A stretch of 64,000 nucleotides of DNA from Gemmatimonadota bacterium (GCA_038060705.1 JBBTFS010000016.1:8960-72959); one strand, 5' to 3'. Positions 12,583 to 27,300 are shown, numbered from the stretch's first letter. The notes: generated by a model from the letters alone, not told the origin. Translations and numbers: made by a program.

Positions 12583-15162
12583 CTATCTCACGGCGAGATA
12601 CAGCGTCGCCAATCCGGTCAGGATAGGCGCCAGCGCCGCCAGCGTCTGCAAGGCGCCGCCCCGATCATTTGCGTCGCGTTGTGGGACGACGACGATGCTG
12701 CCTGGCAGCGGCTTGGGCACATGGTCCCAGAACCACCAGCGCGCCCGCGTCGCCTCGCGCTTGCCACTGGGCTGTGTGACAAATGCGCGCTTATAGTCGG
12801 ATTCGCGCGCCGCTCCGCCTGCCTGATTCACGTAGAATCGCAGGCTTTTGCCGGGTACGTACGCCACGACGTTCGGCGCATTCACCGAACCTCGCACCGT
12901 GACGATCGTGGATCGCTGCGGCACGGTGACCTGATCACCATCCAGCAGCAACATGTTCTCCGGGGACGTGCGGCGACTCATGGCTTGGGGAACGTCAATG
13001 GCGACGCGGATCTCGAGCGGCGCGCGCCCCACATCGCCCTGGCGACGAATGAAGACGGTCCCTTCCGGGTACGCCTCGGCCGTGAAACCGCCGGCACGGT
13101 CGACGATGTCGGCGAGCCGTTCATTGCGGGTCTTGAGGGCATACTGGCCTGGGAACTTCACCTCGCCGGCCAGCGTCACCACGCGCTGCAGCTCCCACGA
13201 CGGCTGCTGCATGATCAGCACGTTGTCGTAGGGCTGCAGTTCGACTTCGGGTGCGCCGTTCGGCTGGGCTGGTAGCCCGGGGGCGCCCAGGTACGCCTCA
13301 CCGGGTTTCCGCTCGAAGAGATACGTGGAATCCAGCGGCACCCGAAGGGTGGCCGCGGTCGCCGAACCGGTACGATCCTGCGGGAGGCGCGCGATTTCCG
13401 CTTCCTTCAGGTAGGCGCCCTCGCGAAGTCCTCCCGCGAGCAGCACGAGATCGCGAATGGTGATGCCACGCCGATAGGGGAACCGCCCGCCCTTGTTCAC
13501 CGCGCCGCCAATGGCCACGTACCGCTCCGGTCGAAAATCCGTGAGCGAGAAGACCTCGATGACGTCGTCTTCCTGAAGCGTAAAGTCCCCAACGACCGCG
13601 CCGCTCGTGTCGCGAAAGACTGCGCGCAATTGGGTTCGCGTCGAATCACCATGCAATCGAGACACAAGCACCTGGCCCAGGTACGCGTCAGGTTTGAGTC
13701 CGCCGGCAACGCGAATCGCCATGGAGACCGTCATCCCGGGAGTAAGCCCCTGCTGTCCCGGGTTCCAGACATCGCCTTCAACGCTGACGGTATTCCGTAC
13801 GCGCTCGGACACCGCAAATACCCGCACCACATCACCACCCGCAAGCGGCACCGCGCTTCCCCCACCGTTCATCAGGTTGCCGGAAGCCACATCGATCGTG
13901 GTGCGTTCGCGCCCGTCACTCGTGCGCTGTCCCGCCGGCAACACGCGCTGGATCTGGACCCGCCGCTGGAGAGCGTCGGAGTTGAATCCGCCAGCGGACG
14001 CCAACAGATCGGCCAGGGTCTCGTTGGGTTTGAGCTCGTAGGTCGCCGGGCGGACGACCTCACCCAGGACACGCACGCGCATGCCACGGGCTGGAACAAA
14101 GACGATGTCCCCCGTTTCGAGGCGCGCGTCCCTGGAAGCGTCACCACGCAGCAGGTAGTCGTACAGGTCCACCGTCGAAACGGTCTTGCCACCGCGCCTG
14201 ATTTGCACTTGTCGAAGCGAACCGTTGGCCGTGGGTCCGCCGGCAGCGTACAGCGATGTCAGGGCGGAGCCGGCACTCGAGACCATGTAACTGCCGGGCC
14301 GTTCCACTTCGCCCAGCACGTAGACCTGGTTCGTGCGCAAACGGCTGACGGAGAGGGAGAATCGCGTCGTTGCGCTGGCTCCACGCCGGATCCCGGAGTA
14401 GACGCGCCCCAGCCGGGAATACAGCACGTCGTTGAGCTGGCCCAGGGTGAGATTCGAGACGGAGACCACGCCGACCTGCGGTATCAGGACGAATCCCTCG
14501 CGCGTGACATCCAGCGCCAGGGACGACTCAACGTCGCCTGTCAGAATAAGCACGAGGCGATCGCCGGGGCCCAGACGGTAGCTGTCATCCACTGGACCCA
14601 GGACGCTCGCTTCCACCCGTGTCGCGCCAGACCGAAACATCTCGAAGCCGAAAATGTTGAAGCCGCTGTCGAGTCTTGCGATGGAATCCTCGACGTCAGC
14701 GCGTACCACCATCCGCCGTGGCTCCCGACGACCCAGCGAGTCAGTGCGGAACAGCGTGTCGCGCGACCGAAGCAGCGAGTCTCGCACGTTCGGCGGAAGG
14801 GTGTCCGTTTGGAGCAACCGCAGCACCGAGACATCAGAACTATCCGCGATGCCAAGTTCCTGAATCGCCGAGTAGAGGTCCGAGGTCGGCGCCTGTGCCG
14901 CCATGCCGGAACCCGGCAAATAGGCGTCGAGCAGGTCTTCCGGGTAGCCTTCCGCCCGCAAACGGGCGTGAATCTGCTCGCGGGTCATCCCGCTGGTGAC
15001 CAAACGCTGGCGCAGCTGCTGCACGAGCTCGGGACGAGCCTGCAACGCGGCCCTTGCCTGCTCGGCGGTCGGCCGTTGCGTCGGCGTCTGTTGAGCAAAC
15101 AGCGCGGGCGCGGAGCACACAGCTCCGCCGGCCAGCACCGGGAACAGCCAGGCAAATCGCAT
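12583..15162 (-). CDS. Large polysaccharide export outer-membrane protein (Wza/Poly_export N-terminal module plus multiple SLBB-type repeats)
   Basis: 859 aa. Signal peptide MRFAWLFPVLAGGAVCSAPALFAQQ. Poly_export-like YRLGPGDRLVLILTGD. Repeated SLBB-like units (…VYVLGEVERPGSY…, …VRVLGEVVRPATYEL…, …VSVEGDVWNPGQQ…, …VAIGGAVNKGGRF…, …VTLAGEVKFPGQYAL…, …VTVRGSVNAPNVV…). Confidence 0.82.
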   Translation of the reverse strand: MRFAWLFPVLAGGAVCSAPALFAQQTPTQRPTAEQARAALQARPELVQQLRQRLVTSGMTREQIHARLRAEGYPEDLLDAYLPGSGMAAQAPTSDLYSAIQELGIADSSDVSVLRLLQTDTLPPNVRDSLLRSRDTLFRTDSLGRREPRRMVVRADVEDSIARLDSGFNIFGFEMFRSGATRVEASVLGPVDDSYRLGPGDRLVLILTGDVESSLALDVTREGFVLIPQVGVVSVSNLTLGQLNDVLYSRLGRVYSGIRRGASATTRFSLSVSRLRTNQVYVLGEVERPGSYMVSSAGSALTSLYAAGGPTANGSLRQVQIRRGGKTVSTVDLYDYLLRGDASRDARLETGDIVFVPARGMRVRVLGEVVRPATYELKPNETLADLLASAGGFNSDALQRRVQIQRVLPAGQRTSDGRERTTIDVASGNLMNGGGSAVPLAGGDVVRVFAVSERVRNTVSVEGDVWNPGQQGLTPGMTVSMAIRVAGGLKPDAYLGQVLVSRLHGDSTRTQLRAVFRDTSGAVVGDFTLQEDDVIEVFSLTDFRPERYVAIGGAVNKGGRFPYRRGITIRDLVLLAGGLREGAYLKEAEIARLPQDRTGSATAATLRVPLDSTYLFERKPGEAYLGAPGLPAQPNGAPEVELQPYDNVLIMQQPSWELQRVVTLAGEVKFPGQYALKTRNERLADIVDRAGGFTAEAYPEGTVFIRRQGDVGRAPLEIRVAIDVPQAMSRRTSPENMLLLDGDQVTVPQRSTIVTVRGSVNAPNVVAYVPGKSLRFYVNQAGGAARESDYKRAFVTQPSGKREATRARWWFWDHVPKPLPGSIVVVPQRDANDRGGALQTLAALAPILTGLATLYLAVR

Positions 15163-15282: not shown

Positions 15283-15457
15283 GAAACACCGCATTGCGTG
15301 CATGCGCTAATGCGTGTAGGGCCAATAACATAGCGGCACCGGAACGACGTTGCTAGTGAACGACAATTTTTTCGAACCACGTTCAGAAATGGACGACCAA
15401 GGATGTCAAAAGGTACACCCTCAGAAAGTGCTTTGCAATACAAAGCTTGCGCCAACA

Positions 15458-15472
15458 TGTATAATCACGCCA
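15458..15472 (+). promoter_or_regulatory. Candidate extended -10 element (TG-TATAAT) placed so that transcription would start at or next to the ATG of the kinase gene (leaderless mRNA)
   Basis: TGTATAAT at 15458-15465. Six nt (CACGCC) separate it from ATG 15472. It lies in the only clearly AT-rich stretch of this region. No good -35 at 17-bp spacing (TTGCAA sits 21 bp upstream). Confidence 0.35.
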
Positions 15473-16482
15473 TGCCCCTCTCGATCGCCCGGGACCGACT
15501 TCGGACCCTCCTGGACGCCGCCCGCACCAAGCGGGTGCTCGTGATCGGCGACGCGATGCTCGACGAGTATCTCGTCGGCGACGTGGACCGGATCTCGCCC
15601 GAAGCACCGGTGCCGGTGGTGCGGGTGCGGGAGCGACGCCAGGCCCTCGGCGGCGCGGCGAACGTCGCGCAGAACGTCGCCGCAGCCGGTGCGTCGTGTC
15701 GGCTGGTCGCGACGATCGGCTCGGACGCCGCGGGTGAACAGCTCAAAGCCATGTTGGCCAAGGCTGGTATCGCCGGAGACGACCTGGTGCGAGTCGCCCG
15801 CCCCACCACGCGAAAGACGCGCGTCCTGGCGCGGTCCCAGCAACTGGTGCGCGTGGACGAGGAGGATGACCACGACCTGCCGCCGCCTGACCTCGAGCGC
15901 GTTGCCCGGGCGATACAGACTGCCCTCAGCGCTGTCGACGCGGTCATTATCGAGGACTACAACAAGGGGCTATTGGTACCCTCGCTCATCGGCGAGGCGA
16001 TAGCGGCTGCGAAACAGCGCAAGCTCCCGGTTGTCGTCGATCCCAAATACCGGCACTTCTTTGCGTACCGCGGCGCGACAGTGTTCAAGCCCAATCGCCG
16101 CGAATTGGATGCCGCGCTTGGCGCCGCTGTTGACCTCGAGCATCCCGAAGCGATCCCGGCAGCGCTCGAGAAGCTCGACGTCGAGTATTTGCTCCTGACA
16201 CTCGGCGAGCGAGGCATGATGCTGGCCGGTCGTCGCGGCGGCATCGATTCCGTGCCCACTGTGGCGCGCGAGGTATACGACGTTGTCGGCGCGGGCGATA
16301 CGGTCACCGCCTATCTGGCCACCGTGCTGGCCGCCGGCGGCAGCGCGCAAGAAGCCGCGGTGATCGCGAACTTCGCTGCCGGCGTTGAGGTCGGAAAGCT
16401 CGGTGCCGCCACCGTAACGCCGGCCGAGATTCTCGAGGCGTACGACGAGCACGCAACCAGCACGGCGGCTCAATCGTCGTAG
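15472..16482 (+). CDS. rfaE1: D-glycero-beta-D-manno-heptose-7-phosphate kinase (RfaE domain I / HldA-type, kinase domain only)
   Basis: RVLVIGDAMLDEYLVGDVDRISPEAPVPVV is the RfaE/HldE kinase N-terminal signature, with the pfkB C-terminal motif DVVGAGDTVTA. About 336 aa, so no adenylyltransferase domain. Start set at ATG 15472; the 23 upstream codons of the track ORF are AT-rich and atypical. Confidence 0.85.
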   Translation: MPLSIARDRLRTLLDAARTKRVLVIGDAMLDEYLVGDVDRISPEAPVPVVRVRERRQALGGAANVAQNVAAAGASCRLVATIGSDAAGEQLKAMLAKAGIAGDDLVRVARPTTRKTRVLARSQQLVRVDEEDDHDLPPPDLERVARAIQTALSAVDAVIIEDYNKGLLVPSLIGEAIAAAKQRKLPVVVDPKYRHFFAYRGATVFKPNRRELDAALGAAVDLEHPEAIPAALEKLDVEYLLLTLGERGMMLAGRRGGIDSVPTVAREVYDVVGAGDTVTAYLATVLAAGGSAQEAAVIANFAAGVEVGKLGAATVTPAEILEAYDEHATSTAAQSS

Positions 16483-16520
16483 GCGCAGTCGATCGCGCGG
16501 AGCTTTACATTGCAGCCATC

Positions 16521-16594
16521 GGTCCCGTAGCTCAGCCGGTTAGAGCAGGCGACTCATAATCGTCGGGTCGTGGGTTCGAGTCCCACCGGGACCA
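16521..16594 (+). tRNA. tRNA with anticodon CAT (elongator Met or lysidine-modified Ile2), no encoded CCA
   Basis: Hand-folded 74-nt cloverleaf: GGTCCCG TA GCTC AGCCGGTTA GAGC A GGCGA CTCATAA TCGTC GGGTC GTGGG TTCGAGT CCCAC CGGGACC A. The G1-C72 pair argues against an initiator. Confidence 0.88.
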
Positions 16595-16608
16595 CTTCGG
16601 TTGTGCGA

Positions 16609-17748
16609 CTACGGGGTGGTAGGCCGCTCGTAGATGCGCCAGCGGCGATACACTCGCCCGCCCCACGCCTCGATCACTTGACGCATGGGCTGGTTGTTCT
16701 CGAGCACCCATGAGGCCTCAGCGCCGGTCGACCCGTACGCGGTAGCGCGACGCGCCGCCTCATGCATGAACACGGGAAGGATGCTTCCCGCCCGGAATTC
16801 CTCCTTGATGCCCAGCGCCATGATCCGGCCGGTGCGAAGGCGCGACTTGGCCAGCAGCATCCGAACGGCACCGAACGGCAGCAGGCGCCCGGACCGATTG
16901 GCCTTCAGGGGGATGTTGTAGTCGGGAATGCTGAGCATGAATCCCGCCGGCTGGCCCTTGATCTCCGCGATGAACGCGAACTGCGGGATCAACAGCGACT
17001 TGAGATCCTTGGCCATGTGCATGAACTCGCCATGCGACATCGGCACAAAGCCCCAATTCTTCTCCCACGCCGAGTTGTAGACGTCCCAGCAGATCTGTAC
17101 TTCGTCCCAGAAGCGGTTCATCTGTACATCGCGGAACGTGAGCTTGGCGCGCGCGGCGGCGCGCGCCGCCAGTGCGGCCACGCGCTCCGGCGCCTTGAAG
17201 CCCGCCTCCCCATACGGCAACCAGTAGCCGAGGAGGTCCTGCACCGAAGACAATCCGGCGCCCAACATGAGGCCTTCGTAATACGGCGGATTCCAAGTCG
17301 TGAGAAACTGCGGGTGCTGGTCGAAGCCGTCCACGAGCAGGCCACATTCGTAGTTGGTGGACGGGTTCATCGGCCCACGAATGGCGGTCAGCCCTTTCGC
17401 TCGCAGCCACGTTCCCGCCGCCGACACCAATCCCGCCGTCGCGTCCGGATCGTCCGCGGCGTCAAAGAACCCGAAAAAGCCCACGCGATCGCCGTGTGTC
17501 TCGTTGTGCGTGCGGTTCTCGATGGCCGCAATTCGCCCGACTGGCCGGCCGTCGCGCCGCGCAATGAACAGGGCTCGATCCGCTTCGCGGTAGAATGGGT
17601 TGCTCTTGGTGTCCAGGGCGTCGCGCACCATCATTCGCAGCGGCGGAACCCAAAGCGGCGCGTCGGTCAGCGCAGGAATTCGCCACGGCATGTCCACGAA
17701 GTCAGAAACACCACGCCGGCCGTCGGCCCGCACAATTTCCAATGACAT
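16609..17748 (-). CDS. GNAT-fold acyltransferase-like protein of unknown specificity
   Basis: 379 aa. It belongs to a widespread family I recognise by the pattern PW(R/L)xY…P(N/L)WVPPL…NPF…A…F(I/L)A…G…VGRIAAI…H…G…GFFGFF…RGP(M/V)NPSTN(Y/E)ECGLLV(D/E)GF. Usually annotated as N-acetyltransferase, with an uncharacterised substrate. Confidence 0.6.
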   Translation of the reverse strand: MSLEIVRADGRRGVSDFVDMPWRIPALTDAPLWVPPLRMMVRDALDTKSNPFYREADRALFIARRDGRPVGRIAAIENRTHNETHGDRVGFFGFFDAADDPDATAGLVSAAGTWLRAKGLTAIRGPMNPSTNYECGLLVDGFDQHPQFLTTWNPPYYEGLMLGAGLSSVQDLLGYWLPYGEAGFKAPERVAALAARAAARAKLTFRDVQMNRFWDEVQICWDVYNSAWEKNWGFVPMSHGEFMHMAKDLKSLLIPQFAFIAEIKGQPAGFMLSIPDYNIPLKANRSGRLLPFGAVRMLLAKSRLRTGRIMALGIKEEFRAGSILPVFMHEAARRATAYGSTGAEASWVLENNQPMRQVIEAWGGRVYRRWRIYERPTTP

Positions 17749-18595
17749 GACAGCAATATGGGCGGGTGGCGTATTGACCGCCTATCTGGTCATCACGGGC
17801 ATCATCCTCGCCGTGGGTGCATCCCGCCTGGACGCAAGCGCCCTGCCCCTGCACGGCGCGCTGCTGAGCGTCGTCGTGGCATGCACCTGGTGGAAGCGAG
17901 TGCCCGCCTGGCTTCGCAACTGGATGCCCGTCGTCGCGATTCCGATCTTGTACGTCGAGGCACCCAACGTCATCGCCGCCGCCGGCCATCTCGCAATGCG
18001 CGACCCCGAGATTCTCCGCATCGAGCTGGCGCTGTTTGGTGGCAATCCCGCAGCGGACTTCGCGCGCACCTGGCCATCAAGGATCCTGAGCGAGCTCCTG
18101 CACGCTTGCTACCTGAGTTACTACGCGATCGTGATATCGATGCCGCTCCTGCTCCAGTACAGCCGGCGCGGGCGCGATTACTCGCGGGCGGTGTTCGCCC
18201 TGCTGCTGACGTTCACGACCTGCTTCATGATCTACGCAGTGTACCCGGTGGAAGGGCCCAGGTATCGCGGCGGCGCCGACGCGCCTGACGGCCCCATCTG
18301 CGCCGCGACGCTCTGGCTGCTCGAGAACGGATCCTCACGCGGAACGGCGTTCCCGTCTTCGCACGTGGCCGTGGCGGTGGCGCAGAGCATCGTCGCGATC
18401 TACTTCTTCGGCGCGCGCGGCGCCTGGCTCGCACTCCTCACGCTGGGCCTCGCCCTGGGCGCGGTTTACGGTGGATTTCACTACGCGATCGATGCGGTCG
18501 CCGGCGCGGTGCTCGGCACGGTGACGGCGGCATTCGCGTTGTACGTCAGCGCGGACCGAGCCCCAACTCAGGCGAACGCCACCGAGCCGACATAG
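17747..18595 (+). CDS. Polytopic membrane protein of the PAP2 (type-2 phosphatidic acid phosphatase / phosphotransferase) superfamily
   Basis: Multiple hydrophobic segments. C-terminal catalytic motifs FPSSHVAVAV and YGGFHYAIDAVAG (SxH … HxxxD). Start set at ATG 17747; alternative ATG 17690 would overlap the divergent gene by 59 nt. Confidence 0.7.
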   Translation: MTAIWAGGVLTAYLVITGIILAVGASRLDASALPLHGALLSVVVACTWWKRVPAWLRNWMPVVAIPILYVEAPNVIAAAGHLAMRDPEILRIELALFGGNPAADFARTWPSRILSELLHACYLSYYAIVISMPLLLQYSRRGRDYSRAVFALLLTFTTCFMIYAVYPVEGPRYRGGADAPDGPICAATLWLLENGSSRGTAFPSSHVAVAVAQSIVAIYFFGARGAWLALLTLGLALGAVYGGFHYAIDAVAGAVLGTVTAAFALYVSADRAPTQANATEPT

Positions 18596-19238: not shown

Positions 19239-19859
19239 TTAGCCGAGGAACGCGTACGACAAGCCGGCCTCTTGCGCGCGATTCACAGCCACGATCATCG
19301 CCGGCACCGGAGTCACGCCCGGCAGCAAGTTGGATGTGAGCTCCGCGCGTACGGCTTCGGCGTTGCCACCGCCCGACGCCAGCTCCCGGCTCATTCGGCG
19401 GATGCTCCGCATGCACACGATGAACCGTACGCCGCGCTCCTGAAGGCGAGCGACGGAAGTCGTTCCGTTCCGTGCCCAGGGATTCCGGACGGACGGCGCG
19501 CCAGTCTGCGGATCCATTTCGGAATACCGCTTTCCGATCTCGTACTTCGCCCACATCGCGTCGTTGAGCGCGATAGGCATGCCGCCGCCGTGGATCCCGA
19601 AGATGGCGTTGAGCTCTGAGTCCTTGAGGCTGTACGCCTCGCCGTAGGCATCGAAGAAGTTCGCCACGCGGCCGAGCGGGTGACCATCCTTGCAGCCATC
19701 AACATCGAAGATCTGGCGGTGCTTGCCATTGAGACCCTGAAGCCAGGACTCATCTGGCGCCGGTTCCGTGGCGGACGATTGCCGGGGCCACAGGGCCAAT
19801 GCGGCCAGCGACGCGCCGGCACGGCGCATGAACCCGCGCCTCGGAGTGACAGGATTCAT
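19239..19859 (-). CDS. Tat-signal (twin-arginine) exported protein of unknown function
   Basis: 206 aa. N-terminus MNPVTPRRGFMRRAGASLAALALWPRQSSA has a twin-arginine motif, h-region and AxA-like site. The mature part vaguely resembles DsrE/F-like folds (low confidence). ATGA overlap with the upstream gene's stop. Confidence 0.6.
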   Translation of the reverse strand: MNPVTPRRGFMRRAGASLAALALWPRQSSATEPAPDESWLQGLNGKHRQIFDVDGCKDGHPLGRVANFFDAYGEAYSLKDSELNAIFGIHGGGMPIALNDAMWAKYEIGKRYSEMDPQTGAPSVRNPWARNGTTSVARLQERGVRFIVCMRSIRRMSRELASGGGNAEAVRAELTSNLLPGVTPVPAMIVAVNRAQEAGLSYAFLG

Positions 19860-22800
19860 CGGATGGACTCCAATAGCGTCGCCAGTGTGTCGACGGCGGT
19901 GTGGATTTGCTCCACGGTGTGGGATGACGAGACAAAGAAGCGCAGGCGAGCCGCGGACTCTGGCACAGCCGGCGCGATCATCGGTTGCACGTTGATCCCC
20001 CGCTCCAGCAGTTGCTGCGACAGGCGCACGGCCCGCATCGAATCGCCGATGATCACGGGAATGATCGGCGTCCCGTTGCTCGCGCCGGTGTCGAGTCCGC
20101 GCGCCCGCGCCGCGGAGAGGAACGCAGCGGCGTTCGCCTGCAGCCGCGCCACGCGTTCGGGTTCGCGCCGAACGATTCTGAGCGCCTCAAGCGCAGCTGC
20201 CGCATTGGCCGGCGCCATCCCAACGCTGAAGACAAAACCCGGCGCGGTGTATTTGAGGTATTCGACGATTTCGCCGCGCGCTGCGATGTACCCGCCGACG
20301 CTGGCAAGCGACTTCGAGAGCGTGCCCATCCAGAGGTCTACCCCGCGTGGCGAGATCGCGAAGTGCTCCGCGATGCCCCGCCCCGTGGTGCCAAGAACGC
20401 CAATCGAGTGGGCCTCGTCCACCATCAGCCATGCCTCGTGGCGGCGCTTCACTTCCACGAATCGCGGCAGATCCGGAATGTCGCCGTCCGCGCTGTATAC
20501 GCCTTCAATCACGATGAGCGCGCGCCGCGCGTGGGAGCGTACGTCGTGGAGCAGCCGCTCGGCAGCCTCGAAATCGTTGTGGCGGAACGTGAGCCGCCTC
20601 GCGCCGGAGAACAACGCGCCCTGCATGGCCGAGTTGTGCAGCAACTCGTCGCACAAGACAACATCGTCCGGCCCGACCAGGTGCGAGATGGTCGACACGT
20701 TGGTCGTGACGCCGCCAATGAACGTGACGCAATCCTCAACGCCAATGAAACCGGCGAGTTCCTCCTCAAGCTCGCGGTGCACCGGCCGTTCGCCGGACAC
20801 CAGCCGGCTCGCAGACGCCGAGGTTCCATAGCGCCGCACCGCCGCGATCACGGCGTCGCGCACCCGCGGATCGCCGGCGAGGTCGAGGTAGTTGTAGTTC
20901 GAGAAGTTGAGGACGTCGCGACCGCCAATCAGCGCCCGGTTTCCGGACGTGCCGTCGTGCACACGGAAGTACGGATTCTCCAAGCCGTGCCTCTCCAGTT
21001 CCTCCAGACGGCCCTGGAGCAGGCGGTATTCCGGGAACTCCGCCGCCGGCAGCGGCGACACCGACCTGCCGTCGCGCCTTTCCGGTATCGCGGACACAGC
21101 GCCCGACGTTCCCATCGCGTTCGCGCCCGCCTCCAGTGCCTGCACCAGTGCGCGAATCGAGGATTCGCGCCACAAGACGGACACGTCCACGCGCCGGCCC
21201 AGCACCTGTTCCAGTTCGGTGACAAGACGGACGGCTGAGACCGAGTCCAGTCCGTAATCACGCACGGACGCCGCGGGATCCACGGCGTCAATGCCGATGC
21301 CGAGCTCGTCCGCCACCCAGCTGCGCAGCCACAACTCCAGGCGAGGCGACACGCCGGGGACGCCACGCAACGCCGGCACGTCGTCGATTGTCTGCTCCGA
21401 GTGGGCCACGACATCGAGCGTCTTGGCCAAGAGCCGGACGCGCGTCTCGCCGCGACGCACTTTCCCGCTCGACGTGCGCGGAATGCCGTTCTGCGCCACG
21501 AGCGTGATCACGTCCGGGAGGATTCCCTCCTTGTCCGCAAGCGCTCGTCGCACAGCAGCGAACACCGCCTCGTTGTCGTCGTCGTTATGGTGCCTCGTCA
21601 CCTCGAGTGCGATCGCCAACCGTTCGCGCGCTTCGCCAGGCAGCGCGTACGCGGCCGCATGGCCCGGACGAAGGTTTGGGTGACTCCGCTGCGCCGCGAG
21701 CTCGAGGTCCTGCGGGTAGTAGTTGCGGCCGCCGATGATGATGAGGTCCTTCAGCCTCCCCGTAACGAACAACTGGCCGTCATCGAGGAATCCGAGGTCG
21801 CCCGTCCGCAGGAATGCGCGACCCGGGTCCGCCGCGAGGGTGACGCCGAACACCGGTTCCGCTTCGTCCTGCGTCCGCCAGTAGCGGGAGGCGATGCTCT
21901 CACCAGACACCCAGATCTCGCCAATGCGCCGATCTTCAACCACTGCGCGCGATGCCGGATCGACGATGCGGACGATTTGGCCCTCCGCCGGTGCGCCGGA
22001 GGACACCAGTCGCAGGCGATCGCCCGCCGTGGCCGGCGCGATGCGCTTTTGCTCAAGCGCGTCGCGCGACACATCCAGCGTGGACGCCCCCTGCCCCCAC
22101 GGTCCGCCCGCCACGAACAGAGTGGCCTCGGCCAGCCCATAACACGGAAAGAAGGCGTCGCTCCGGAAGCCTGCCGGCGCGAACGCGCGCGTGAACCGCT
22201 CGATCGTTTCCGCGCGAATCGGTTCGGCACCATCGAATACGGTGTGCCAACACGAGAGGTCGAGTCCGCGCATCTCTTCGGGCTTGATGCGCTCCACACA
22301 CAGGTCGAACGCGAAGTTCGGCGCCGCGGTGCTGGTGGCCCGGTAGGTGGACGTTGCCTCAAGCCACGAAAGCGGCCGCTGCAGGAATGTCGCCGACGCG
22401 AGGAGCACCGACCCGATGCCCAGGTACATCGGTTGCAGAATGCCGCCGATCAATCCCATGTCGTGAAACGGCGGCAGCCAGGATAATGCCAGATCATCAA
22501 CGGCCACGGGATAGGCCGCGCGGATGAGCGACAAGTTGTGCAGGAGATTGGCGTGCGTCAGAACGACTCCGCGCGGAGCCGCCGTCGAGCCGGAGGTGTA
22601 CTGCAGCATGGCGATGTCAGACGCGGTGGTCGCTCGCGCGTGCGAAACGTCCCCCTCGGTCGGGTCGTCCACGGCGATCCAGCGCAGTCGTCGCAGCCGC
22701 TCATCGTCACCGCGCCAGGACTCGAGTCGCTCGAGCAGCGACTTGGTGGTCAGCGCCGCGGCCGGCTCACAGTCCGACGCAATCGCCGACACTCGCGGGT

Positions 22801-23155
22801 CCGGGCGACGCGGGTGTGGAGGATACGCCGGCACCGCGATCACCCCTGCATAGAGACACCCAAAGAAAGCGGCCAGGTAGTCAAGCCCAGGCGGCACAAG
22901 CAAGAGAACCCGGTCGCCGGGCTTGGTGACTTCCGCGATGCGCGCCGCAACGCCAAGCGCACGCAACTCCAGCTGCCGATGAGTGATCGCCTCAACCGGC
23001 TTTCGGTCACCTGGCAGAAACCGGTACACTTGGAAATCGGGGCGCTCGGCAATACGAAGTCGCAACAGATCCACCAGCGTCCGGCAGCCTGCCGCGCGCA
23101 CGTCGTCAGTGCGCACGGGACGATGGGTTGGACGTACAGACGGCGAGGCGCGCAT
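19856..23155 (-). CDS. Tri-domain fusion: fatty acyl-AMP ligase (FAAL) + phosphopantetheine carrier domain + PLP-dependent alpha-oxoamine synthase (Spt/BioF/Kbl family)
   Basis: 1099 aa. Adenylation core LQYTSGSTAAPRGV, AAPNFAFD, GRNYYPQDLE, SSGKVRR. Carrier motif DYGLDSVSAV (Ser638 codon 21242-21244). AOS domain FSNYNYLDLA…MVDEAHSIG…GTLSKS (Lys948 codon 20312-20314). Confidence 0.88.
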   Translation of the reverse strand: MRASPSVRPTHRPVRTDDVRAAGCRTLVDLLRLRIAERPDFQVYRFLPGDRKPVEAITHRQLELRALGVAARIAEVTKPGDRVLLLVPPGLDYLAAFFGCLYAGVIAVPAYPPHPRRPDPRVSAIASDCEPAAALTTKSLLERLESWRGDDERLRRLRWIAVDDPTEGDVSHARATTASDIAMLQYTSGSTAAPRGVVLTHANLLHNLSLIRAAYPVAVDDLALSWLPPFHDMGLIGGILQPMYLGIGSVLLASATFLQRPLSWLEATSTYRATSTAAPNFAFDLCVERIKPEEMRGLDLSCWHTVFDGAEPIRAETIERFTRAFAPAGFRSDAFFPCYGLAEATLFVAGGPWGQGASTLDVSRDALEQKRIAPATAGDRLRLVSSGAPAEGQIVRIVDPASRAVVEDRRIGEIWVSGESIASRYWRTQDEAEPVFGVTLAADPGRAFLRTGDLGFLDDGQLFVTGRLKDLIIIGGRNYYPQDLELAAQRSHPNLRPGHAAAYALPGEARERLAIALEVTRHHNDDDNEAVFAAVRRALADKEGILPDVITLVAQNGIPRTSSGKVRRGETRVRLLAKTLDVVAHSEQTIDDVPALRGVPGVSPRLELWLRSWVADELGIGIDAVDPAASVRDYGLDSVSAVRLVTELEQVLGRRVDVSVLWRESSIRALVQALEAGANAMGTSGAVSAIPERRDGRSVSPLPAAEFPEYRLLQGRLEELERHGLENPYFRVHDGTSGNRALIGGRDVLNFSNYNYLDLAGDPRVRDAVIAAVRRYGTSASASRLVSGERPVHRELEEELAGFIGVEDCVTFIGGVTTNVSTISHLVGPDDVVLCDELLHNSAMQGALFSGARRLTFRHNDFEAAERLLHDVRSHARRALIVIEGVYSADGDIPDLPRFVEVKRRHEAWLMVDEAHSIGVLGTTGRGIAEHFAISPRGVDLWMGTLSKSLASVGGYIAARGEIVEYLKYTAPGFVFSVGMAPANAAAALEALRIVRREPERVARLQANAAAFLSAARARGLDTGASNGTPIIPVIIGDSMRAVRLSQQLLERGINVQPMIAPAVPESAARLRFFVSSSHTVEQIHTAVDTLATLLESIR

Positions 23156-23162
23156 GGAGGGG

Positions 23163-24170
23163 TCAGTTCACGACTGGGGCTGCACCGCGCGGATCACGGA
23201 GCCACCCAGCTCGAACGTACCAAAGGTAGGTGTCGCGAACAGCGTCGGGGAGAGATCGCGACGGGTTGAACCCGATTTCGCTCCGAGCCCGTGACGCAGA
23301 GCACACCCAGCGCGGCTGCGCCGCCAGCACGGCCCTGCTGTGGCACAGCAGTGGAGCCGTCCCGGTGGCGCGGCCCAGCCACTCGCCAACCGTTGACGCC
23401 GCGCTCACGAGGCCCGAGCTGAGGTTCACGGTTCGCGGCGCCACGCCCATGGCTTTCGACACGTGTGCGCCAAACTCGCCCCAAGTGACCGGAGAATCCG
23501 AGGCCAGGAAGTACGTGCGCCCGATCGCTGCCTGCTCGCGCGAGGCATTCATGAGCCCATCCACAACGTCGTCCACATGCAACAGCGACATCTCGTGGCG
23601 TTGAATGCCGGGGTAGATGAGCCAACCGCGCTGCGCCAATCGGAACAACGACAGGAATCCGCGATCCCAGGGACCGAACACCGAGCACGGCCGCACAATC
23701 GTGGTGGCCACACGATTCGAGAAGCCCTCGACAACCCGCTCGGCTGCCAACTTGCTCCGCCCATAAGCCTCCAGCGGGGCGGGCGCGTCGGCTTCCGTGA
23801 CCGACTGACCCGGCCCCGCCGGACCGGCCGCGGACTGCGATGACACATGCACGAAGCGCGGCCCCGCCCGCCGACTGGTGATCGCCCGCAACAGCATCCG
23901 CGTCGGCGCCACGTTCGCCCGGTCGAAGCGAGCCTGGCCGGTTGCGTGCGTCGCCGCAGCCAGATGGAACACCACGTCGGCGCCGTCGAACGCATGGCAC
24001 CGGTCGAGAGAGTCCTGATCATCGTAATTCACTGGAAACGCCGCGGCACCTGGCGGCGGTGCGTGCCCCCGCGCACGCACCAGGCATCGCACCTCCGCGC
24101 CACGGCCCAGCAAGCGTTGGACGAGATTCCGCCCGATGAAGCCGCTGGCTCCGGTGACGACGACGATCAT
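23163..24170 (-). CDS. NAD(P)-dependent epimerase/dehydratase-family (extended SDR) oxidoreductase
   Basis: 335 aa. N-terminal Rossmann motif MIVVVTGASGFIGRNL and catalytic YGRSK. Its stop lies 7 nt before the fusion gene's ATG. Its ATG overlaps the hflX stop (ATGA). Confidence 0.82.
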   Translation of the reverse strand: MIVVVTGASGFIGRNLVQRLLGRGAEVRCLVRARGHAPPPGAAAFPVNYDDQDSLDRCHAFDGADVVFHLAAATHATGQARFDRANVAPTRMLLRAITSRRAGPRFVHVSSQSAAGPAGPGQSVTEADAPAPLEAYGRSKLAAERVVEGFSNRVATTIVRPCSVFGPWDRGFLSLFRLAQRGWLIYPGIQRHEMSLLHVDDVVDGLMNASREQAAIGRTYFLASDSPVTWGEFGAHVSKAMGVAPRTVNLSSGLVSAASTVGEWLGRATGTAPLLCHSRAVLAAQPRWVCSASRARSEIGFNPSRSLPDAVRDTYLWYVRAGWLRDPRGAAPVVN

Positions 24171-25438
24171 GACCCGCGGACGCCTTCCCGTTGCACGGTC
24201 ACACCCGCCTGACGCAGGCGGCCGGCCAGCCGGTCGTTCACTCGAGCGCGCACCACCAGCTGCTCACCCACCGTCCGTTGGTCAATCACCTCGCCGTCAC
24301 GATGGATCTCGGCCAACAGCTTGCCATCCGAGTGGGAAAGGCGGATCTCGGCCACCGGCCGATTCGCCCGAACAGCGGACTGCAGCGCACGACGGAGCGG
24401 ATCGAGTCCACCCGGCGCTTCGGCGGAAACGAAGACAGCGCCCGGGCAGTCCGCGGCCACGCGATCCTGAAGCGTAAGAAGTTCGTCCCCGGGGAGCAGG
24501 TCGATCTTGTTGAACACCAGCAGCACTGGGCGCTCGCTGAGACCCAGCTCGTTCAGTACGTCCACCACCACTTCGCGCTGTTCCTCCCACATCGGATGGG
24601 CGGCGTCAATGATGTGCAGCAGGATGTCGGCCTCCCGGGCCTCCTCGAGGGTGGCGCGAAATGATGCCACGAGATGATGCGGGAGTTTGCGGATGAAGCC
24701 CACCGTGTCTGTGACGAGCACACGAGAGTTGTCGCCGAGCTTCACTTCGCGCGTCAGCGGATCCAGCGTCGCGAACAGCCGGTCCTCCACAAACACGTCG
24801 TCAGCTTCGGCGAGGGCACGCAGGATCGAGGACTTGCCCGCGTTCGTGTAGCCGACCAGCGACGCCTTGAACTCGTCGCGCCGACCGCTGCGCTGCACCA
24901 CGCGCCCCTTCTCCACTTCCTTGAGCCGCTCCTTGAGGAGCTTGATCCGATGACTGATGAGGCGCCGGTCGGTCTCGAGCTGGGTCTCGCCGGGGCCTCG
25001 CACGCCGATACCGCCACGGAACTTCTCGAGGTGCGTCCACATCCGGGTGAGTCGCGGCAGCATGTACTCGAGCTGCGCCAGCTCCACCTGCATTTTGGAT
25101 TCGGACGTGCGAGCCCGCGTCGCGAATATGTCGAGGATCAGCTCGGCGCGATCCACCACGCGCTGTCCCACAATGCCCTCGATGTTCTTCGCCTGGGACG
25201 GCGTCAGCTCGTCGTCGAAGATCACCAGCGTGACAGCGAGTTCCGCCACCATCGCCTTCAACTCTTCCAGCTTTCCAACGCCGAGGTAGGTGCCGGGATG
25301 CGGACGGTCGAGTTGTTGGGTCAACTCCCCGACCACCAGGGCACCCGCGGTGTCCGCCAGTCGGCGCAGCTCGCTGAGGTGTTCGCGCAGCATCACGGCG
25401 CGATCGCGGGTGCGCTTGAGCGGCGCGCCAACGAGCAA
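24167..25438 (-). CDS. hflX: GTPase HflX
   Basis: LILDIFATRARTSESKMQVELAQLEYMLPRL…GPGETQLETDRR…GYTNAGKSS…DTVGFI…NKIDL. The only canonical start in frame is TTG 25436-25438 (see finding on the N-terminus). Confidence 0.9.
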   Translation of the reverse strand: MLVGAPLKRTRDRAVMLREHLSELRRLADTAGALVVGELTQQLDRPHPGTYLGVGKLEELKAMVAELAVTLVIFDDELTPSQAKNIEGIVGQRVVDRAELILDIFATRARTSESKMQVELAQLEYMLPRLTRMWTHLEKFRGGIGVRGPGETQLETDRRLISHRIKLLKERLKEVEKGRVVQRSGRRDEFKASLVGYTNAGKSSILRALAEADDVFVEDRLFATLDPLTREVKLGDNSRVLVTDTVGFIRKLPHHLVASFRATLEEAREADILLHIIDAAHPMWEEQREVVVDVLNELGLSERPVLLVFNKIDLLPGDELLTLQDRVAADCPGAVFVSAEAPGGLDPLRRALQSAVRANRPVAEIRLSHSDGKLLAEIHRDGEVIDQRTVGEQLVVRARVNDRLAGRLRQAGVTVQREGVRGS

Positions 25439-25492: not shown

Positions 25493-25951
25493 CTAGCGGC
25501 GCAGGGTACTGTAGCGGCCGGTGGTTGTAAACGGCACGGTGAAGTTCCCCACCACCGACGCCACGGTCACGTCTCCCGTGACCCGATATGAAACGATACC
25601 GGTCTGCAGCAATTGGCGCGCGGCGGCTCCGAGCCCAGCATAGCTGAACGCCACCGGGATTCTGATGACCGTTGAGTCATCGGCCTGCACCGTCGCACGA
25701 CTGTCCATCTCACCGCCGGCAAGCGTCACGCTGTCACTGACGAACACGCGATACGTCAGACGGCTCGCGTCCAGCCGAAAGCCGTTTGGGTTGCGCACGC
25801 CGAGCGCCACCTCGAGTTCCCCTCCGGTGACACCCAGTCCCACCACCCTCACGTCGAGCAGTTCGACGCGCGGTTGTTGGAACGCCTGCCGGCCCAACGC
25901 GGCGCAACCCGCCGTCGCTGCCAACGCCATCACCAGGGTCAATCGCTTCAT
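25493..25951 (-). CDS. LEA_2/WHy-type lipoprotein
   Basis: MKRLTLVMALAATAGC lipobox, then a LEA14-like beta-sandwich pattern (…VELLDVRVVGLGVTGGELEVALGVRNPNGFRL…). The ATG shares 1 nt with the rarA stop. Confidence 0.65.
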   Translation of the reverse strand: MKRLTLVMALAATAGCAALGRQAFQQPRVELLDVRVVGLGVTGGELEVALGVRNPNGFRLDASRLTYRVFVSDSVTLAGGEMDSRATVQADDSTVIRIPVAFSYAGLGAAARQLLQTGIVSYRVTGDVTVASVVGNFTVPFTTTGRYSTLRR

Positions 25952-27300
25952 CAATCGGAATCTCCTGAGTGTTTCGCCTTGAGTTCGTTCCACCAAGCCA
26001 GGCGCTTGGCGATCTCCTTCTCGAAGCCGAATGTCCCCGGTGAGTAGAAGGAGCGGCCCCGCAGTGCCTCCGGCAGGTACTCCTGTGGCAGGTACGCTTC
26101 CGGCGCATCGTGCGCGTAACGATACCCGGCGTTGTACCCCAACTCCCTCATAAGGTTGGTGGGCGCATTGCGAATCTGAAGCGGAACACCCTCGGTCGGC
26201 GTCTCGCGCGCCGCCTCCATCGCAGCGCCCAGCGCGACGACCACGCGATTCGACTTGGGCGCGGTGGCGAGGTACACCACCATCTGCACCAGCGGCAGGA
26301 GTCCTTCCGGCTGTCCCAGCGTATGAAACGCATCCCGGGCCGCCACAACCTGGATCAGCGCATTGGGGTCCGCCAGCCCGATGTCCTCGGACGCCATCGC
26401 CATCGCGCGTCGGAAGAGAATCATCGGATCGCCGCCGCCGTCAACGAACCGGGCCATCCAGTACAGGGCGCCCTGGGGGTCGCTGCCGCGCAGGCTTTTG
26501 TGGAAGGCGGACAGCATGTTGTAGGTCTCTTCGCCGCCTTTGTCGAAGCGAGCAACCCGCAGCTGCATCGCCTCCCGCGCCACAGCGGCGTCGATCCGTC
26601 CACCATCCACCGTCTGTTGCGCCGCGGCTTCCAGCACGGTCAGCGCGCGCCGTGCGTCGCCGTCAGCTTCGGTCGCGATGATCGCGAGCGCGTCATCGTC
26701 AATCTCAAGCGTCCGCGCGCCCAGGCCCCGCTCTGGGTCGGTCAGCGCACGCAGGAGCAGTTGGCGCACGGCCTCGGCCGGGATGGGTCGTAATACGAAC
26801 ACGCGAACGCGCGACAACAAGGCACCGTTGATCTCGAACGACGGATTCTCCGTCGTCGCGCCAACGAGGGTTATCGTCCCGGTCTCGACGTGCGGAAGGA
26901 ATGCGTCCTGTTGTGATTTGTTGAGACGGTGGATCTCGTCGGCGAACAAGATCGTGCCCCGCCCCGACGCCAGCCGCTCCTGCGCCTCGGCAACCACCTC
27001 GCGCACACGCACAACCCCCTCCGTCACCGACGAGAACGCGACGAACTCGCGGTCCGTGTACGCGGCGATCAGCCGGCCCAACGTCGTCTTGCCGGAGCCC
27101 GGCGGCCCCCAGAGCACGACCGACCCGATGGTCCCCTTCTCAATGGAGTCGCGCAGGGCGCGCCCGGGGGCGAGGACGTGTTCCTGGCCGACGAACTCGT
27201 CCAGCGACGCAGGCCGCATTCTCGCCGCGAGCGGCTGTGCGCGGTCGATGGCGCCCTGGAACAGTGTGGCTTGCCTGGCCGCCTCCTTCGACTTCGCCAT
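25951..27300 (-). CDS. rarA: Replication-associated recombination protein A (RarA/MgsA, AAA+ ATPase)
   Basis: RMRPASLDEFVGQEHVL…VVLWGPPGSGKTTLGRLIA…ILFADEIHRLNKSQQDAFLP…MLSAFHKSLRGSDPQGALYW. Start trimmed to ATG 27298-27300; the 721-aa track ORF is a spurious 5' extension over the ZIP gene. Confidence 0.92.
   Translation of the reverse strand: MAKSKEAARQATLFQGAIDRAQPLAARMRPASLDEFVGQEHVLAPGRALRDSIEKGTIGSVVLWGPPGSGKTTLGRLIAAYTDREFVAFSSVTEGVVRVREVVAEAQERLASGRGTILFADEIHRLNKSQQDAFLPHVETGTITLVGATTENPSFEINGALLSRVRVFVLRPIPAEAVRQLLLRALTDPERGLGARTLEIDDDALAIIATEADGDARRALTVLEAAAQQTVDGGRIDAAVAREAMQLRVARFDKGGEETYNMLSAFHKSLRGSDPQGALYWMARFVDGGGDPMILFRRAMAMASEDIGLADPNALIQVVAARDAFHTLGQPEGLLPLVQMVVYLATAPKSNRVVVALGAAMEAARETPTEGVPLQIRNAPTNLMRELGYNAGYRYAHDAPEAYLPQEYLPEALRGRSFYSPGTFGFEKEIAKRLAWWNELKAKHSGDSD

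Follow-up and report, generated by a model that had tools for sequence, protein, structure and literature searches.

A three-domain acyl ligase–carrier–α-oxoamine synthase fusion as a candidate sphingoid-base synthase in Gemmatimonadota

Results

A fused activator, carrier and condensing enzyme

In a Gemmatimonadota soil bacterium, a fatty-acid activator, a carrier protein and a condensing enzyme resembling serine palmitoyltransferase (SPT) lie on one polypeptide. This three-domain enzyme probably uses its own carrier for the committed step in making a sphingoid base, and linked genes would complete a ceramide-type lipid. An initial annotation of the locus had proposed a sphingoid-base-type synthase, and this reading is supported by the identities of the domains, by SPT-like residues in the α-oxoamine synthase (AOS) domain, and by a cluster encoding an acyltransferase, a reductase and an Aur1-like protein. 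Coordinates below refer to the window, meaning the whole 64,000-nt stretch of DNA analyzed.

19856..23155, (-): fusion of fatty acyl-AMP ligase (FAAL), carrier (ACP) and AOS, a single 1099-aa ORF with an ATG start
21401..23086, (-): FAAL domain, residues ~24–585, including the C-terminal subdomain with Lys565
21116..21340, (-): carrier (ACP) domain, residues ~606–680; PP-binding, with phosphopantetheine-attachment residue Ser638
19859..20950, (-): PLP-dependent AOS domain, residues ~736–1099, with Lys948; Pfam Aminotran_1_2
Fusion residues 36–426: Pfam AMP-binding, E 3e-59
Fusion residues 470–581: Pfam AMP-dom_DIP2-like
Fusion residues 609–674: Pfam PP-binding, E 1e-14
Fusion residues 747–1091: Pfam Aminotran_1_2, E 5.7e-48

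The single 1099-aa, three-domain ORF described earlier is borne out by the ORF call and by Pfam matches for all three parts, and the domain searches suggested at that time recovered AMP-binding, PP-binding and Aminotran_1_2. Every motif quoted then is present (LQYTSGSTAAPRGV at residues 184–197, AAPNFAFD at 277–284, GRNYYPQDLE at 476–485, DYGLDSVSAV at 633–642, MVDEAHSIG at 911–919 and GTLSKS at 944–949), and the codons assigned to Ser638 (21242–21244) and Lys948 (20312–20314) are correct. The NCBI version of the protein (P0001; 1086 aa, 100% identity) is 13 residues shorter, its annotated start being an alternative GTG 13 codons downstream of the ATG. Across 114 full-length homologs (54–100% identity), Ser638, Lys948, His840, Asp913, His916, Arg1072 and the adenylation motifs are 97–100% conserved. 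Hence the three domains are intact and under selection, and the reading frame is no chance ORF.

For the N-terminal part, the best NCBIfam models are of the FAAL class (PRK05850, 435 bits; FadD32, 402 bits). FAAL models score 367–435 bits, versus 146 for the long-chain acyl-CoA ligase model, all of these values lying below the full-length cut-offs. The domain matches the solved FAAL structures 7r7g (498 bits) and 3kxw (445 bits) and aligns to both with no gap across the FAAL-specific insertion region; together with the model scores, this upholds the FAAL-like assignment. The core motifs of adenylate-forming enzymes (YTSGST, YGxAE, GDLG, GRxKD and SSGK) are present and 97–100% conserved among the 114 homologs. 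In the carrier domain, the PP-binding match and the invariance of the GxDS serine site in the same homologs (G635, D637 and S638, each 100%) confirm the predicted phosphopantetheine serine. At the sequence level, the fused carrier and a nearby phosphopantetheinyl transferase (PPTase) are consistent with acyl transfer to the holo-carrier rather than to CoA. The synthase had been called self-contained, a description that fits the first three chemical steps but not the whole, since a PPTase is required in trans.

The closest solved relative of the AOS domain is Sphingobacterium SPT (3a2b, 254 bits), and all ten PLP/catalytic residues of that enzyme are identical here. K948, H840, D913, H916, R1072, S888, T945, S947 and S977 agree with Sphingobacterium SPT and are 100% conserved in homologs. 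The domain thus has the PLP lysine, the histidine that stacks on PLP and anchors the substrate's carboxyl group, the Asp/His pair and the conserved arginine of the AOS family. It is complete, as claimed, and the objection that catalytic residues might be missing has not materialized.

Genes linked to the fusion

The fusion is flanked by the following genes.

23163..24170, (-): extended SDR (3-beta-HSD/epimerase type), 335 aa; Pfam Epimerase and 3Beta_HSD; candidate 3-keto reductase
19239..19859, (-): ORF206, 206 aa; accessory gene with a twin-arginine-like N-terminus, its start overlapping the fusion stop codon
18568..19224, (-): Sfp/HetI-type 4'-phosphopantetheinyl transferase, ~218 aa; Pfam ACPS and AASDHPPT_N
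17747..18595, (+): PAP2_3 membrane protein, 282 aa; Pfam PAP2_3, 60.4 bits versus a cut-off of 27; 100% match to P0391
16609..17748, (-): tandem-GNAT-fold protein, 379 aa, identified with AF2 and Foldseek; candidate N-acyltransferase, ceramide synthase analogue

The SDR gene lies 7 nt upstream of the fusion, and its product carries GxxGxxG and YxxxK; its NCBIfam matches (HpnA, OleD and SdmB-like) are all below cut-off, and matches of the NDUFA9 type are weak. The PPTase reported as adjacent is indeed present, from 18568 to ~19224, with ORF206 between it and the fusion. Its start is a probable GTG at 19224, placed by alignment with the homolog at locus L001, and it scores 96 bits with the HetI model, below cut-off. 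ORF206 gave no match in Pfam or the PDB and is conserved only in L005, L007 and L056.

When the AF2 model of the PAP2_3 protein (pLDDT 90) was searched with Foldseek, the only matches at E ≤ 1e-3 were the AUR1 entries 9ivc and 9vj4 (TM 0.60–0.68). FPSSH, HYAID and R172 are invariant, as is the His/His/Asp motif (H206, H245, D249). Against NF052609, the curated model of bacterial phosphoinositol-dihydroceramide synthase, it scores 14.8 bits (cut-off 480). With its Aur1-like modeled fold, the protein is a candidate for transferring a phospho-headgroup to an acceptor of the ceramide type. The tandem-GNAT protein has nothing above Pfam cut-off and no NCBIfam match; its AF2 model (pLDDT 75, pTM 0.75) retrieves tandem GNATs with Foldseek (E ~1e-10, TM ~0.6). 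This protein could instead acylate an amino sugar, in an MshD-like role.

Linkage was analyzed at the 24 Gemmatimonadota loci whose flanks are complete. The co-localization that marks a ceramide module, an AOS gene with a GNAT-fold acyltransferase and an SDR, was found: the tandem GNAT is linked to the fusion at all 24 loci and the SDR at 23, with PAP2_3 at 17 and the PPTase at 15. A GT4, a flippase-like protein and a deacetylase occur at 15 of the 24 each; the GlcNAc-type GT4, deacetylase and flippase-like gene found in most relatives are absent from the 64,000-nt window. L035, L036, L043 and L054 have a minimal fusion–GNAT–SDR cluster, and L052 has the fusion and GNAT only. PAP2 is missing from L005, the closest relative, which counts against a ceramide-type pathway. 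Next to more distant tri-domain genes (42–46% identity), an SDR adjoins or lies nearby in five of five cases and a GNAT in two (L089, L090). The tri-domain architecture itself is widespread, occurring in ~50 of the best 150 clusters at 50% identity.

The cluster is bordered by housekeeping genes (HflX, RarA, CCA-adding enzyme, AlaRS), and its synteny is kept across fusion-protein identities of 46–84%. This setting suggests a core lipid pathway that is vertically inherited. The conserved cluster resembles a complete set of genes for making ceramide-type membrane lipids, and its acyltransferase, reductase and Aur1-like members strengthen the case for a sphingoid base.

Proposed pathway

From the domain identities, intact catalytic residues, folds and linkage described above, we infer substrates, step order and final lipid as follows. 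The FAAL domain would adenylate a free long-chain fatty acid and transfer the acyl group to the phosphopantetheine that the neighboring Sfp-type PPTase presumably attaches to Ser638. Through Lys948, the PLP domain would then join this acyl-thioester to an amino acid (most likely L-serine) in a decarboxylating condensation that releases a 2-amino-3-keto long-chain base from the carrier. Serine is favored because an Aur1-like enzyme needs a ceramide-type hydroxyl acceptor. In Gemmatimonadota, the tandem-GNAT protein is predicted to N-acylate the amine and the extended SDR to reduce the 3-keto group, in either order, after which the Aur1-like PAP2_3 protein may move a phospho-headgroup onto the 1-hydroxyl. 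In most relatives, the GlcNAc-type GT4, deacetylase and flippase-like membrane protein would add and expose an amino sugar.

Nature of the product

It is unlikely, though worth serious consideration, that the same enzyme chemistry gives a small diffusible or secondary metabolite and not a membrane sphingolipid; such a product might be a long-chain amino-ketone or amino-alcohol, a pyrazine or pyrrole derived from it, or a signal like CAI-1. The phylogeny of the AOS domain bears on this. The domain groups, with 100% support, among carrier-coupled AOS domains, in a clade with the AOS at the C-terminus of a cyanobacterial PKS of 2671 aa (L076; 56% identical) and a Lyngbya AOS adjoining several FAALs. 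Close kinship with PKS-terminal cyanobacterial domains, which belong to secondary metabolism, counts against the sphingoid-base reading, as do tri-domain copies in Planctomycetes that stand alone, without any linked gene. One distant tri-domain member adjoins a PKS, another adjoins an MFS transporter and a methyltransferase, and a split version in Myxococcaceae is linked to a macrolide-type glycosyltransferase. Yet the Gemmatimonadota gene is fixed amid housekeeping genes, and its consistent pairing with an acyltransferase and a reductase, usually alongside an Aur1-like enzyme and a flippase-like protein, follows the logic of a lipid pathway rather than that of a sporadic island.

Somewhat less probable still is condensation with a non-serine amino acid (alanine, glycine, threonine or cysteate), which would give 1-deoxy or other non-canonical bases and an aminolipid instead of a true sphingolipid. 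The AOS pocket is SPT-like in part (S783, R784, S947). Six positions in the side-chain region differ from Sphingobacterium SPT (N52Y, S53N, A79S, G80A, M271V and A274V), so serine is not assured as the substrate; G80A and N52Y are among the changes that favor another amino acid. No NCBIfam model reaches its cut-off with this domain, the curated Spt models included (CFB type, 340 versus 640 bits; beta-proteobacterial, 304 versus 500; alpha-proteobacterial, 210 versus 670), and the models of BioF, Kbl and SPT score alike (355, 307 and 340 bits). These sub-cut-off Spt scores, and an identity of 36% to Sphingobacterium SPT, also count against a sphingoid base. On the other side, an Aur1-like headgroup transferase and a GT4 require a hydroxyl acceptor, such as a serine-derived C1-OH, and the AOS domain matches the cysteate acyltransferase 28eh less well than it does SPT (163 versus 254 bits). 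The YNY motif of the domain, which we take to be similar to that of Sphingomonas and human SPT, also speaks for serine. Moreover, the SPT-type Ser81, Arg82 and Ser243 positions (residue roles as given in PMC10196870) are common to the AOS domain and SPT, unlike Kbl or BioF, which lack them.

That the AOS domain is a BioF feeding biotin synthesis can be dismissed for practical purposes: TIGR00858 (bioF) is nominally its top model and JGI labels such proteins '8-amino-7-oxononanoate synthase', but the score of 355 bits is below the cut-off of 426.45, the domain shares 30% identity with E. coli BioF, the activator fused to it is of the long-chain FAAL type and not one for pimelate, the neighbors are lipid-type with no bio genes nearby, and the phylogeny called for in the initial annotation places the domain in its own 100%-supported clade rather than nested within BioF.

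Discussion

The sphingoid-base route proposed here is best compared with the ceramide pathway of Caulobacter and other Rhodobacteria, which comprises the acyl-ACP synthetase AasR, the specialized ACP AcpR, Spt, the N-acyltransferase CerS/bCerS and the reductase CerR (PMC11324152, PMC9386255). By analogy, the candidate roles assigned here amount to the same five activities and follow the same scheme: a dedicated carrier receives the fatty acid at the expense of ATP, a PLP enzyme performs the condensation with that acyl-carrier, N-acylation and NAD(P)-dependent reduction have their own enzymes, and the genes lie together. The synthetase, ACP and Spt of Caulobacter are three separate proteins, as stated earlier (PMC11324152, PMC9386255), whereas in Gemmatimonadota these first three activities form one polypeptide. 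The activators also differ in class (FAAL here, FadD/Aas-like for AasR), and the Gemmatimonadota AOS lies in another clade, below every curated Spt model. The candidate acyltransferase here, a tandem GNAT without family assignment, is likened to CerS by its putative role.

Proteins of this kind were already catalogued in 2013; what is new is the genomic context in Gemmatimonadota. A survey of PLP domains in assembly lines published that year (PMC3870968) lists in its Table 2 two A-CP-AOS proteins, A1ZVW4 of Microscilla marina and A3ZWL3 of Blastopirellula marina, which have the same tri-domain order as the fusion. It also modeled the AOS domain of the Synechococcus PCC 7002 'AMP-binding enzyme' B1XHP8, using the SPT template 3A2B. 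Product, specificity and cluster are each marked '?' for the survey entries, and no link was drawn to an acyltransferase/reductase/Aur1-like cluster or to Gemmatimonadota (PMC3870968). We found no functional study of the FAAL–carrier–AOS architecture in the literature searched.

Terminal AOS domains are familiar from assembly lines such as those with prodiginine RedL/PigH, saxitoxin SxtA and fumonisin Fum8. Assembly-line AOS domains (e.g. that of the L076 PKS) take their acyl thioester from a carrier and set the chain free by joining it to an amino acid, as the fusion is predicted to do. In those systems the chain is elongated by KS/AT modules and the products are secondary metabolites, whereas the Gemmatimonadota protein has no extension module and the fatty acid would pass directly from FAAL to AOS. 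An acid-activating enzyme is likewise joined to an α-oxoamine synthase in BioWF, where pimeloyl-CoA synthetase and AONS are naturally fused (PMC9544090). BioWF differs in having two domains, no carrier and an activator from another family; it converts a C7 diacid to the CoA thioester and serves biotin synthesis. Among solved structures, only yeast inositol-phosphorylceramide synthase Aur1 matches the PAP2_3 protein significantly, and the two share FPSxH...HYxxD, but sequence similarity is marginal (profile E 0.03) and a Kei1 partner is lacking.

No report of sphingolipids in Gemmatimonadota was found in the searchable literature. We tentatively raise the possibility that in these bacteria, one of the common phyla of soil, a compact pathway leads to sphingolipids with phospho or glyco headgroups: activation, carrier and condensation would be fused, N-acylation would fall to a tandem GNAT unrelated to eukaryotic CerS and bCerS, and a bacterial relative of fungal Aur1 would perform the headgroup step. 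The module of fusion and reductase, with or without the GNAT, in other lineages might then mark a second way of making sphingoid bases that is widespread among bacteria. If so, ceramide synthase would have arisen independently once more, as a tandem GNAT, and the second route would begin with free fatty acids, as opposed to acyl-CoA or FAS-derived acyl-ACP.

Domain organization of the fusion

The initial annotation described a single ORF with adenylation, carrier and alpha-oxoamine synthase (AOS) domains. A Pfam profile search recovered all of them within its 1099 codons, in a window with a G+C content of 65.9%.

19856–23155, minus strand, ATG start, 1099 codons: FAAL-ACP-AOS fusion
Fusion residues 36–426: AMP-binding (E 3e-59)
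Fusion residues 470–581: FAAL/DIP2-type C-terminal subdomain
Fusion residues 609–674: PP-binding (E 1e-14)
Fusion residues 747–1091: Aminotran_1_2 (E 5.7e-48)

Each motif quoted in that annotation was found in the protein, and the codons of Ser638 and Lys948 had been placed correctly. An NCBI protein from a Gemmatimonadota MAG (P0001) is identical, with an N-terminus 13 residues shorter. Among 114 full-length homologs (54–100% identity), the adenylation motifs, carrier serine and PLP-site residues are 97–100% conserved.

The adenylation domain had been called FAAL-like (fatty acyl-AMP ligase), and profile scores bore this out. The N-terminal 585 residues scored 435, 402 and 367 bits against the FAAL models PRK05850, FadD32 and FadD21, respectively, but far lower (146 bits) against long-chain acyl-CoA ligase models. 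The closest solved structure is a polyketide synthase FAAL domain (7r7e-g, 498 bits); Legionella FAAL (3kxw) scored 445 bits, and other solved relatives include mycobacterial FadD32, FadD23 and FadD28. In the FAAL-specific insertion segment, the fusion aligns with the solved FAAL relatives without gaps.

Affinities of the AOS domain

For the C-terminal 400 residues, the closest solved relative is the serine palmitoyltransferase (SPT) of Sphingobacterium multivorum (3a2b/8guh, 254 bits). Scores for other enzymes were 217 bits (Thermus ThAOS), 214 bits (Kbl), 201 bits (human SPTLC2), 181 bits (ALAS), 174–178 bits (BioF), 163 bits (cysteate acyltransferase) and 85 bits (CqsA). Active-site residues of the Sphingobacterium enzyme, with roles as described (PMC10196870), were mapped onto the fusion by alignment. 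Missing catalytic residues had been raised as a possible objection, yet all 10 PLP/catalytic positions are identical (H840, S888, D913, A915, H916, T945, S947, K948, S977 and R1072). SPT residues Ser81, Arg82 and Ser243 are also common to the fusion, whereas Kbl has Val + Gly and BioF has Gly + Gly. Around the substrate side chain, six changes relative to the Sphingobacterium enzyme were seen: N52Y, S53N, A79S, G80A, M271V and A274V.

The domain fell below the cut-off of every curated NCBIfam AOS model: 355 bits for bioF (cut-off 426), 340 for Spt of the CFB type (640), 307 for Kbl (460) and 304 for Spt of the beta type (500). Judged from its sequence, the AOS domain is thus SPT-like yet outside the curated Spt families. 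A tree was computed by neighbour joining from 382 columns with 100 bootstraps; its few references came without ALAS, CqsA or any SPT from Sphingomonas, Caulobacter or eukaryotes. In this tree, Gemmatimonadota and Planctomycetota fusions and cyanobacterial AOS domains formed one clade with 100% support and 55–76% internal identity, apart from SmSPT, ThAOS and Kbl (32–37% identity). Nesting within BioF, the other objection considered at the outset, was not seen; the domain lies outside BioF, with 30% identity to the E. coli enzyme. The separate, fully supported clade and the low identity to SmSPT/ThAOS/Kbl and E. coli BioF show the domain to be a carrier-coupled AOS rather than BioF. Within the same clade, a 2671-aa type I PKS from a cyanobacterial MAG (L076, 3170–11185) carries a C-terminal AOS 56% identical to that of the window.

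A BioF identity for the fusion was ruled out by sub-cut-off score, identity, tree and gene context. Tri-domain proteins (P0003, P0007, P0242 and others) are nonetheless labeled ‘8-amino-7-oxononanoate synthase’ by JGI/IMG, while NCBI calls them merely ‘aminotransferase class I/II-fold PLP-dependent enzyme’. The JGI name is probably a misnomer, as score, tree and context do not back it, and it would amount to a systematic misannotation in JGI data if the cluster works as proposed below.

Gene neighbourhood

The fusion lies in the following setting.

24167–25438, minus strand: HflX, overlapping the SDR start
23163–24170, minus strand: extended SDR, candidate 3-keto reductase, ending 7 nt ahead of the fusion
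19239–19859, minus strand: ORF206 (206 aa), start overlapping the fusion stop
18568 to about 19224, minus strand: Sfp/HetI-type phosphopantetheinyl transferase (PPTase), after ORF206
17747–18595, plus strand: PAP2_3 membrane protein, convergent with the PPTase gene
16609–17748, minus strand: 379-aa protein, head-to-head with PAP2_3, start codons overlapping

The PPTase noted earlier near the fusion is in the same operon, and intact FAAL, carrier and AOS are in one chain. Start codons of the PAP2_3 and 379-aa protein genes overlap at 17746–17749, leaving no intergenic promoter space; this arrangement is kept in a related locus, L001 (14821–14822).

Linkage was assessed by tblastn searches of 24 Gemmatimonadota loci, each flanked by 5 kb or more in both directions.

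Genes linked to the fusion in 24 Gemmatimonadota loci
379-aa protein: 24/24
SDR: 23/24
PAP2_3: 17/24
PPTase: 15/24
GT4, flippase-like membrane protein, polysaccharide deacetylase, Wzi block: 15/24 each
ORF206: 3/24

A protein of N-acyltransferase fold and a reductase are therefore constant companions, and an Aur1-like membrane enzyme is a frequent one. In Gemmatimonas-like MAGs (L035, L036, L043 and L054), the cluster takes a minimal form comprising the fusion, the 379-aa protein and the SDR, and L052 shows the fusion and 379-aa protein only. L005, the closest relative among the matches listed, is without room for a PAP2 gene. The GT4 block, which in 15 of the 24 relatives sits between the 379-aa protein gene and a heptose kinase gene, is missing in the window (15403–17748 compared with L001 14821–21599). 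In L003, the fusion is followed by a DAO gene, an L-2-hydroxyglutarate oxidase equivalog and hence an unrelated insertion.

The region is bounded by housekeeping genes: AlaRS, the CCA-adding enzyme, RarA and HflX form one border, and genes for heptose kinase and Mla form the opposite one. This position is kept over fusion-protein identities of 46–84%, which fits a vertically inherited core function. On the RarA side, a 721-aa ORF (25951–28116, minus strand) has RarA/MgsA domains at residues 290–710 and an over-long N-terminal extension; the true start is probably much further downstream. It overlaps a 236-aa ORF (27300–28010, minus strand), where synteny with L001 leads one to expect a Zip-family transporter. 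Two outer-membrane biogenesis genes were also observed near the lipid cluster. One encodes a Wza-like polysaccharide exporter of 859 aa in which six SLBB domain matches were scored (12583–15162, minus strand), the other a 1203-aa LptD_2 protein (60176–63787, minus strand).

Five distant tri-domain genes from the cluster representatives (42–46% identity) all have a reductase adjoining or nearby, in three cases of the same 3-beta-HSD type as the window SDR. A homolog of the 379-aa protein adjoins two of the five (45% and 32.5% identity). Planctomycete copies (Lacipirellula L063 and others) have none of the linked lipid genes nearby, so their contexts are uninformative. Flanking one distant tri-domain gene (L087 6835–14703, 42% identity) are a CMAS-type methyltransferase, an SDR of the classical kind, an MFS transporter and a further class I/II aminotransferase; the gene adjoins a set of Trb/VirB genes for type IV secretion, which may point to a mobile element.

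Partner proteins

For the 379-aa protein, no usable match came from sequence searches of Pfam, NCBIfam or PDB. Its structure model (pLDDT 75, pTM 0.75) matched tandem-GNAT N-acyltransferases in Foldseek (E ∼1e-10, TM ∼0.6), among them glucosamine N-acetyltransferases, MAB_4324, the clavulanate tandem GNAT and mycothiol synthase MshD. Lipid-modifying aminoacyl-PG synthase domains ranked lower. The protein is thus a predicted tandem GNAT, recognized by modeled fold only.

The SDR has GxxGxxG and YxxxK motifs and matches lipid-type 3-keto/3-hydroxy enzymes (HpnA, OleD and SdmB models, sterol-4-alpha-carboxylate 3-dehydrogenase), with weak matches to NDUFA9. For the PAP2_3 model (pLDDT 90, pTM 0.89), the sole Foldseek matches at E ≤ 1e-3 were to AUR1, the inositol-phosphorylceramide synthase of yeast, in two entries: 9ivc (E 2.7e-5) and 9vj4 (E 3e-5, TM 0.68 over 275 columns). 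Matches to LpxE, PgpB and acid phosphatases were >500-fold weaker. Two invariant motifs, FPSSH and HYAID, align with AUR1. Some homologs also match PAP2_C, the sphingomyelin-synthase-type domain.

In the accessory block, GT4 resembles GlcNAc transferases (BshA, MshA and a GlcNAc-phosphatidylglycerol synthase model) and has as companions a deacetylase and a flippase-like protein of the TIGR00374 type. ORF206 has a twin-arginine-like N-terminus (RRGFMRRAG), no Pfam family and no PDB match; against the TetH thiosulfate dehydrogenase model it reaches only a weak 49.9 bits (cut-off 300), and this over the C-terminal half of the model.

Distribution of the tri-domain architecture

Genomes were scanned with exact peptide patterns from the fusion. 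Among the best 80 of 433 relatives, full-length fusions occur in at least about 50 Gemmatimonadota species-level MAGs (46–84% identity) and in Planctomycetota (45–47%), including cultured Lacipirellula limnantheis I41 and Aeoliella straminimaris. From 1.84 billion cluster representatives, the best 150 matches were assessed. About 50 are 1000–1250 aa and align in a single stretch over residues ∼25–1095 (34–52% identity); the remainder include longer PKS-containing versions. By both searches, the architecture is common. A Myxococcaceae MAG has a split form (L055 9821–14514), in which a 660-aa FAAL-ACP and a 416-aa AOS (34% identity) are distinct proteins; an EryCIII/GT28-type glycosyltransferase comes next.

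A 2013 survey already catalogued A-CP-AOS proteins of Microscilla and Blastopirellula, with product ‘?’, and modeled the AOS domain of a Synechococcus PCC 7002 ‘AMP-binding enzyme’ (PMC3870968). The Nostoc ‘no sphingolipids’ paper deals with a plain 394-aa BioF rather than this architecture, and the AOS fusion is not among the entries of the eLife FAAL survey.

DISCUSSION

Bacterial sphingolipid synthesis has been elucidated only recently. To our knowledge, in known bacterial routes Spt, carrier, acyl-ACP synthetase, CerS and CerR are all separate proteins. The five-gene AasR/AcpR/Spt/CerS/CerR pathway of Caulobacter offers a parallel scheme (PMC11324152, PMC9386255), but in the window three activities are fused and FAAL replaces AasR. 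We propose that FAAL would adenylate a free long-chain fatty acid and load it onto Ser638, and that AOS would join this acyl group to an amino acid by condensation, yielding a 2-amino-3-keto base. The base would be N-acylated by the GNAT and reduced by the SDR, in either order, and the Aur1-like enzyme would attach a phospho-headgroup. In most relatives, an amino sugar would be attached, deacetylated and flipped. Very likely, the fusion uses its own carrier to produce a long-chain alpha-amino-ketone; a ceramide-type membrane lipid as the product of the cluster is somewhat favored.

The product might instead be a secondary metabolite or signal, a role that suits the PKS-linked and stand-alone relatives; at odds with the Gemmatimonadota context, it seems improbable. 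A little less probable still is an AOS substrate other than serine, the main argument for serine being that the Aur1-like enzyme and GT4 need a hydroxyl acceptor. The GNAT could acylate the amino sugar instead of the base, but it is present in minimal clusters that have no sugar genes.

The same co-localization logic has already led to the prediction of Spt-like genes in about 40 phyla (PMC11334938), and the chemistry follows from the domains, so the surprise is limited. Gemmatimonadota are unmentioned in the main text and two supplementary files of that study. Our literature search turned up neither a functional study of any FAAL-ACP-AOS fusion nor a report of sphingolipids in Gemmatimonadota, which is weak evidence, most subscription journals being outside its coverage. 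Already known, then, are the architecture, which is catalogued, and a chemistry that is as the domains predict. What is new is a fused entry enzyme tied to a conserved acyltransferase/reductase/Aur1-like cluster, together with functions proposed from predicted fold for two unannotated partners.

If the cluster works as proposed, the fusion would provide a one-protein entry into sphingoid bases from free fatty acids, and could be a useful biocatalyst because neither acyl-CoA nor a partner ACP would be needed. Candidate functions would also be assigned to the tandem GNAT and the bacterial Aur1-like PAP2_3 protein, both representing unannotated families. The scheme also makes a testable prediction, that of ceramide-type (sphingolipid-type) lipids in Gemmatimonadota, which, if true, would bear on the origin of soil sphingolipid biomarkers and on outer-membrane biology.
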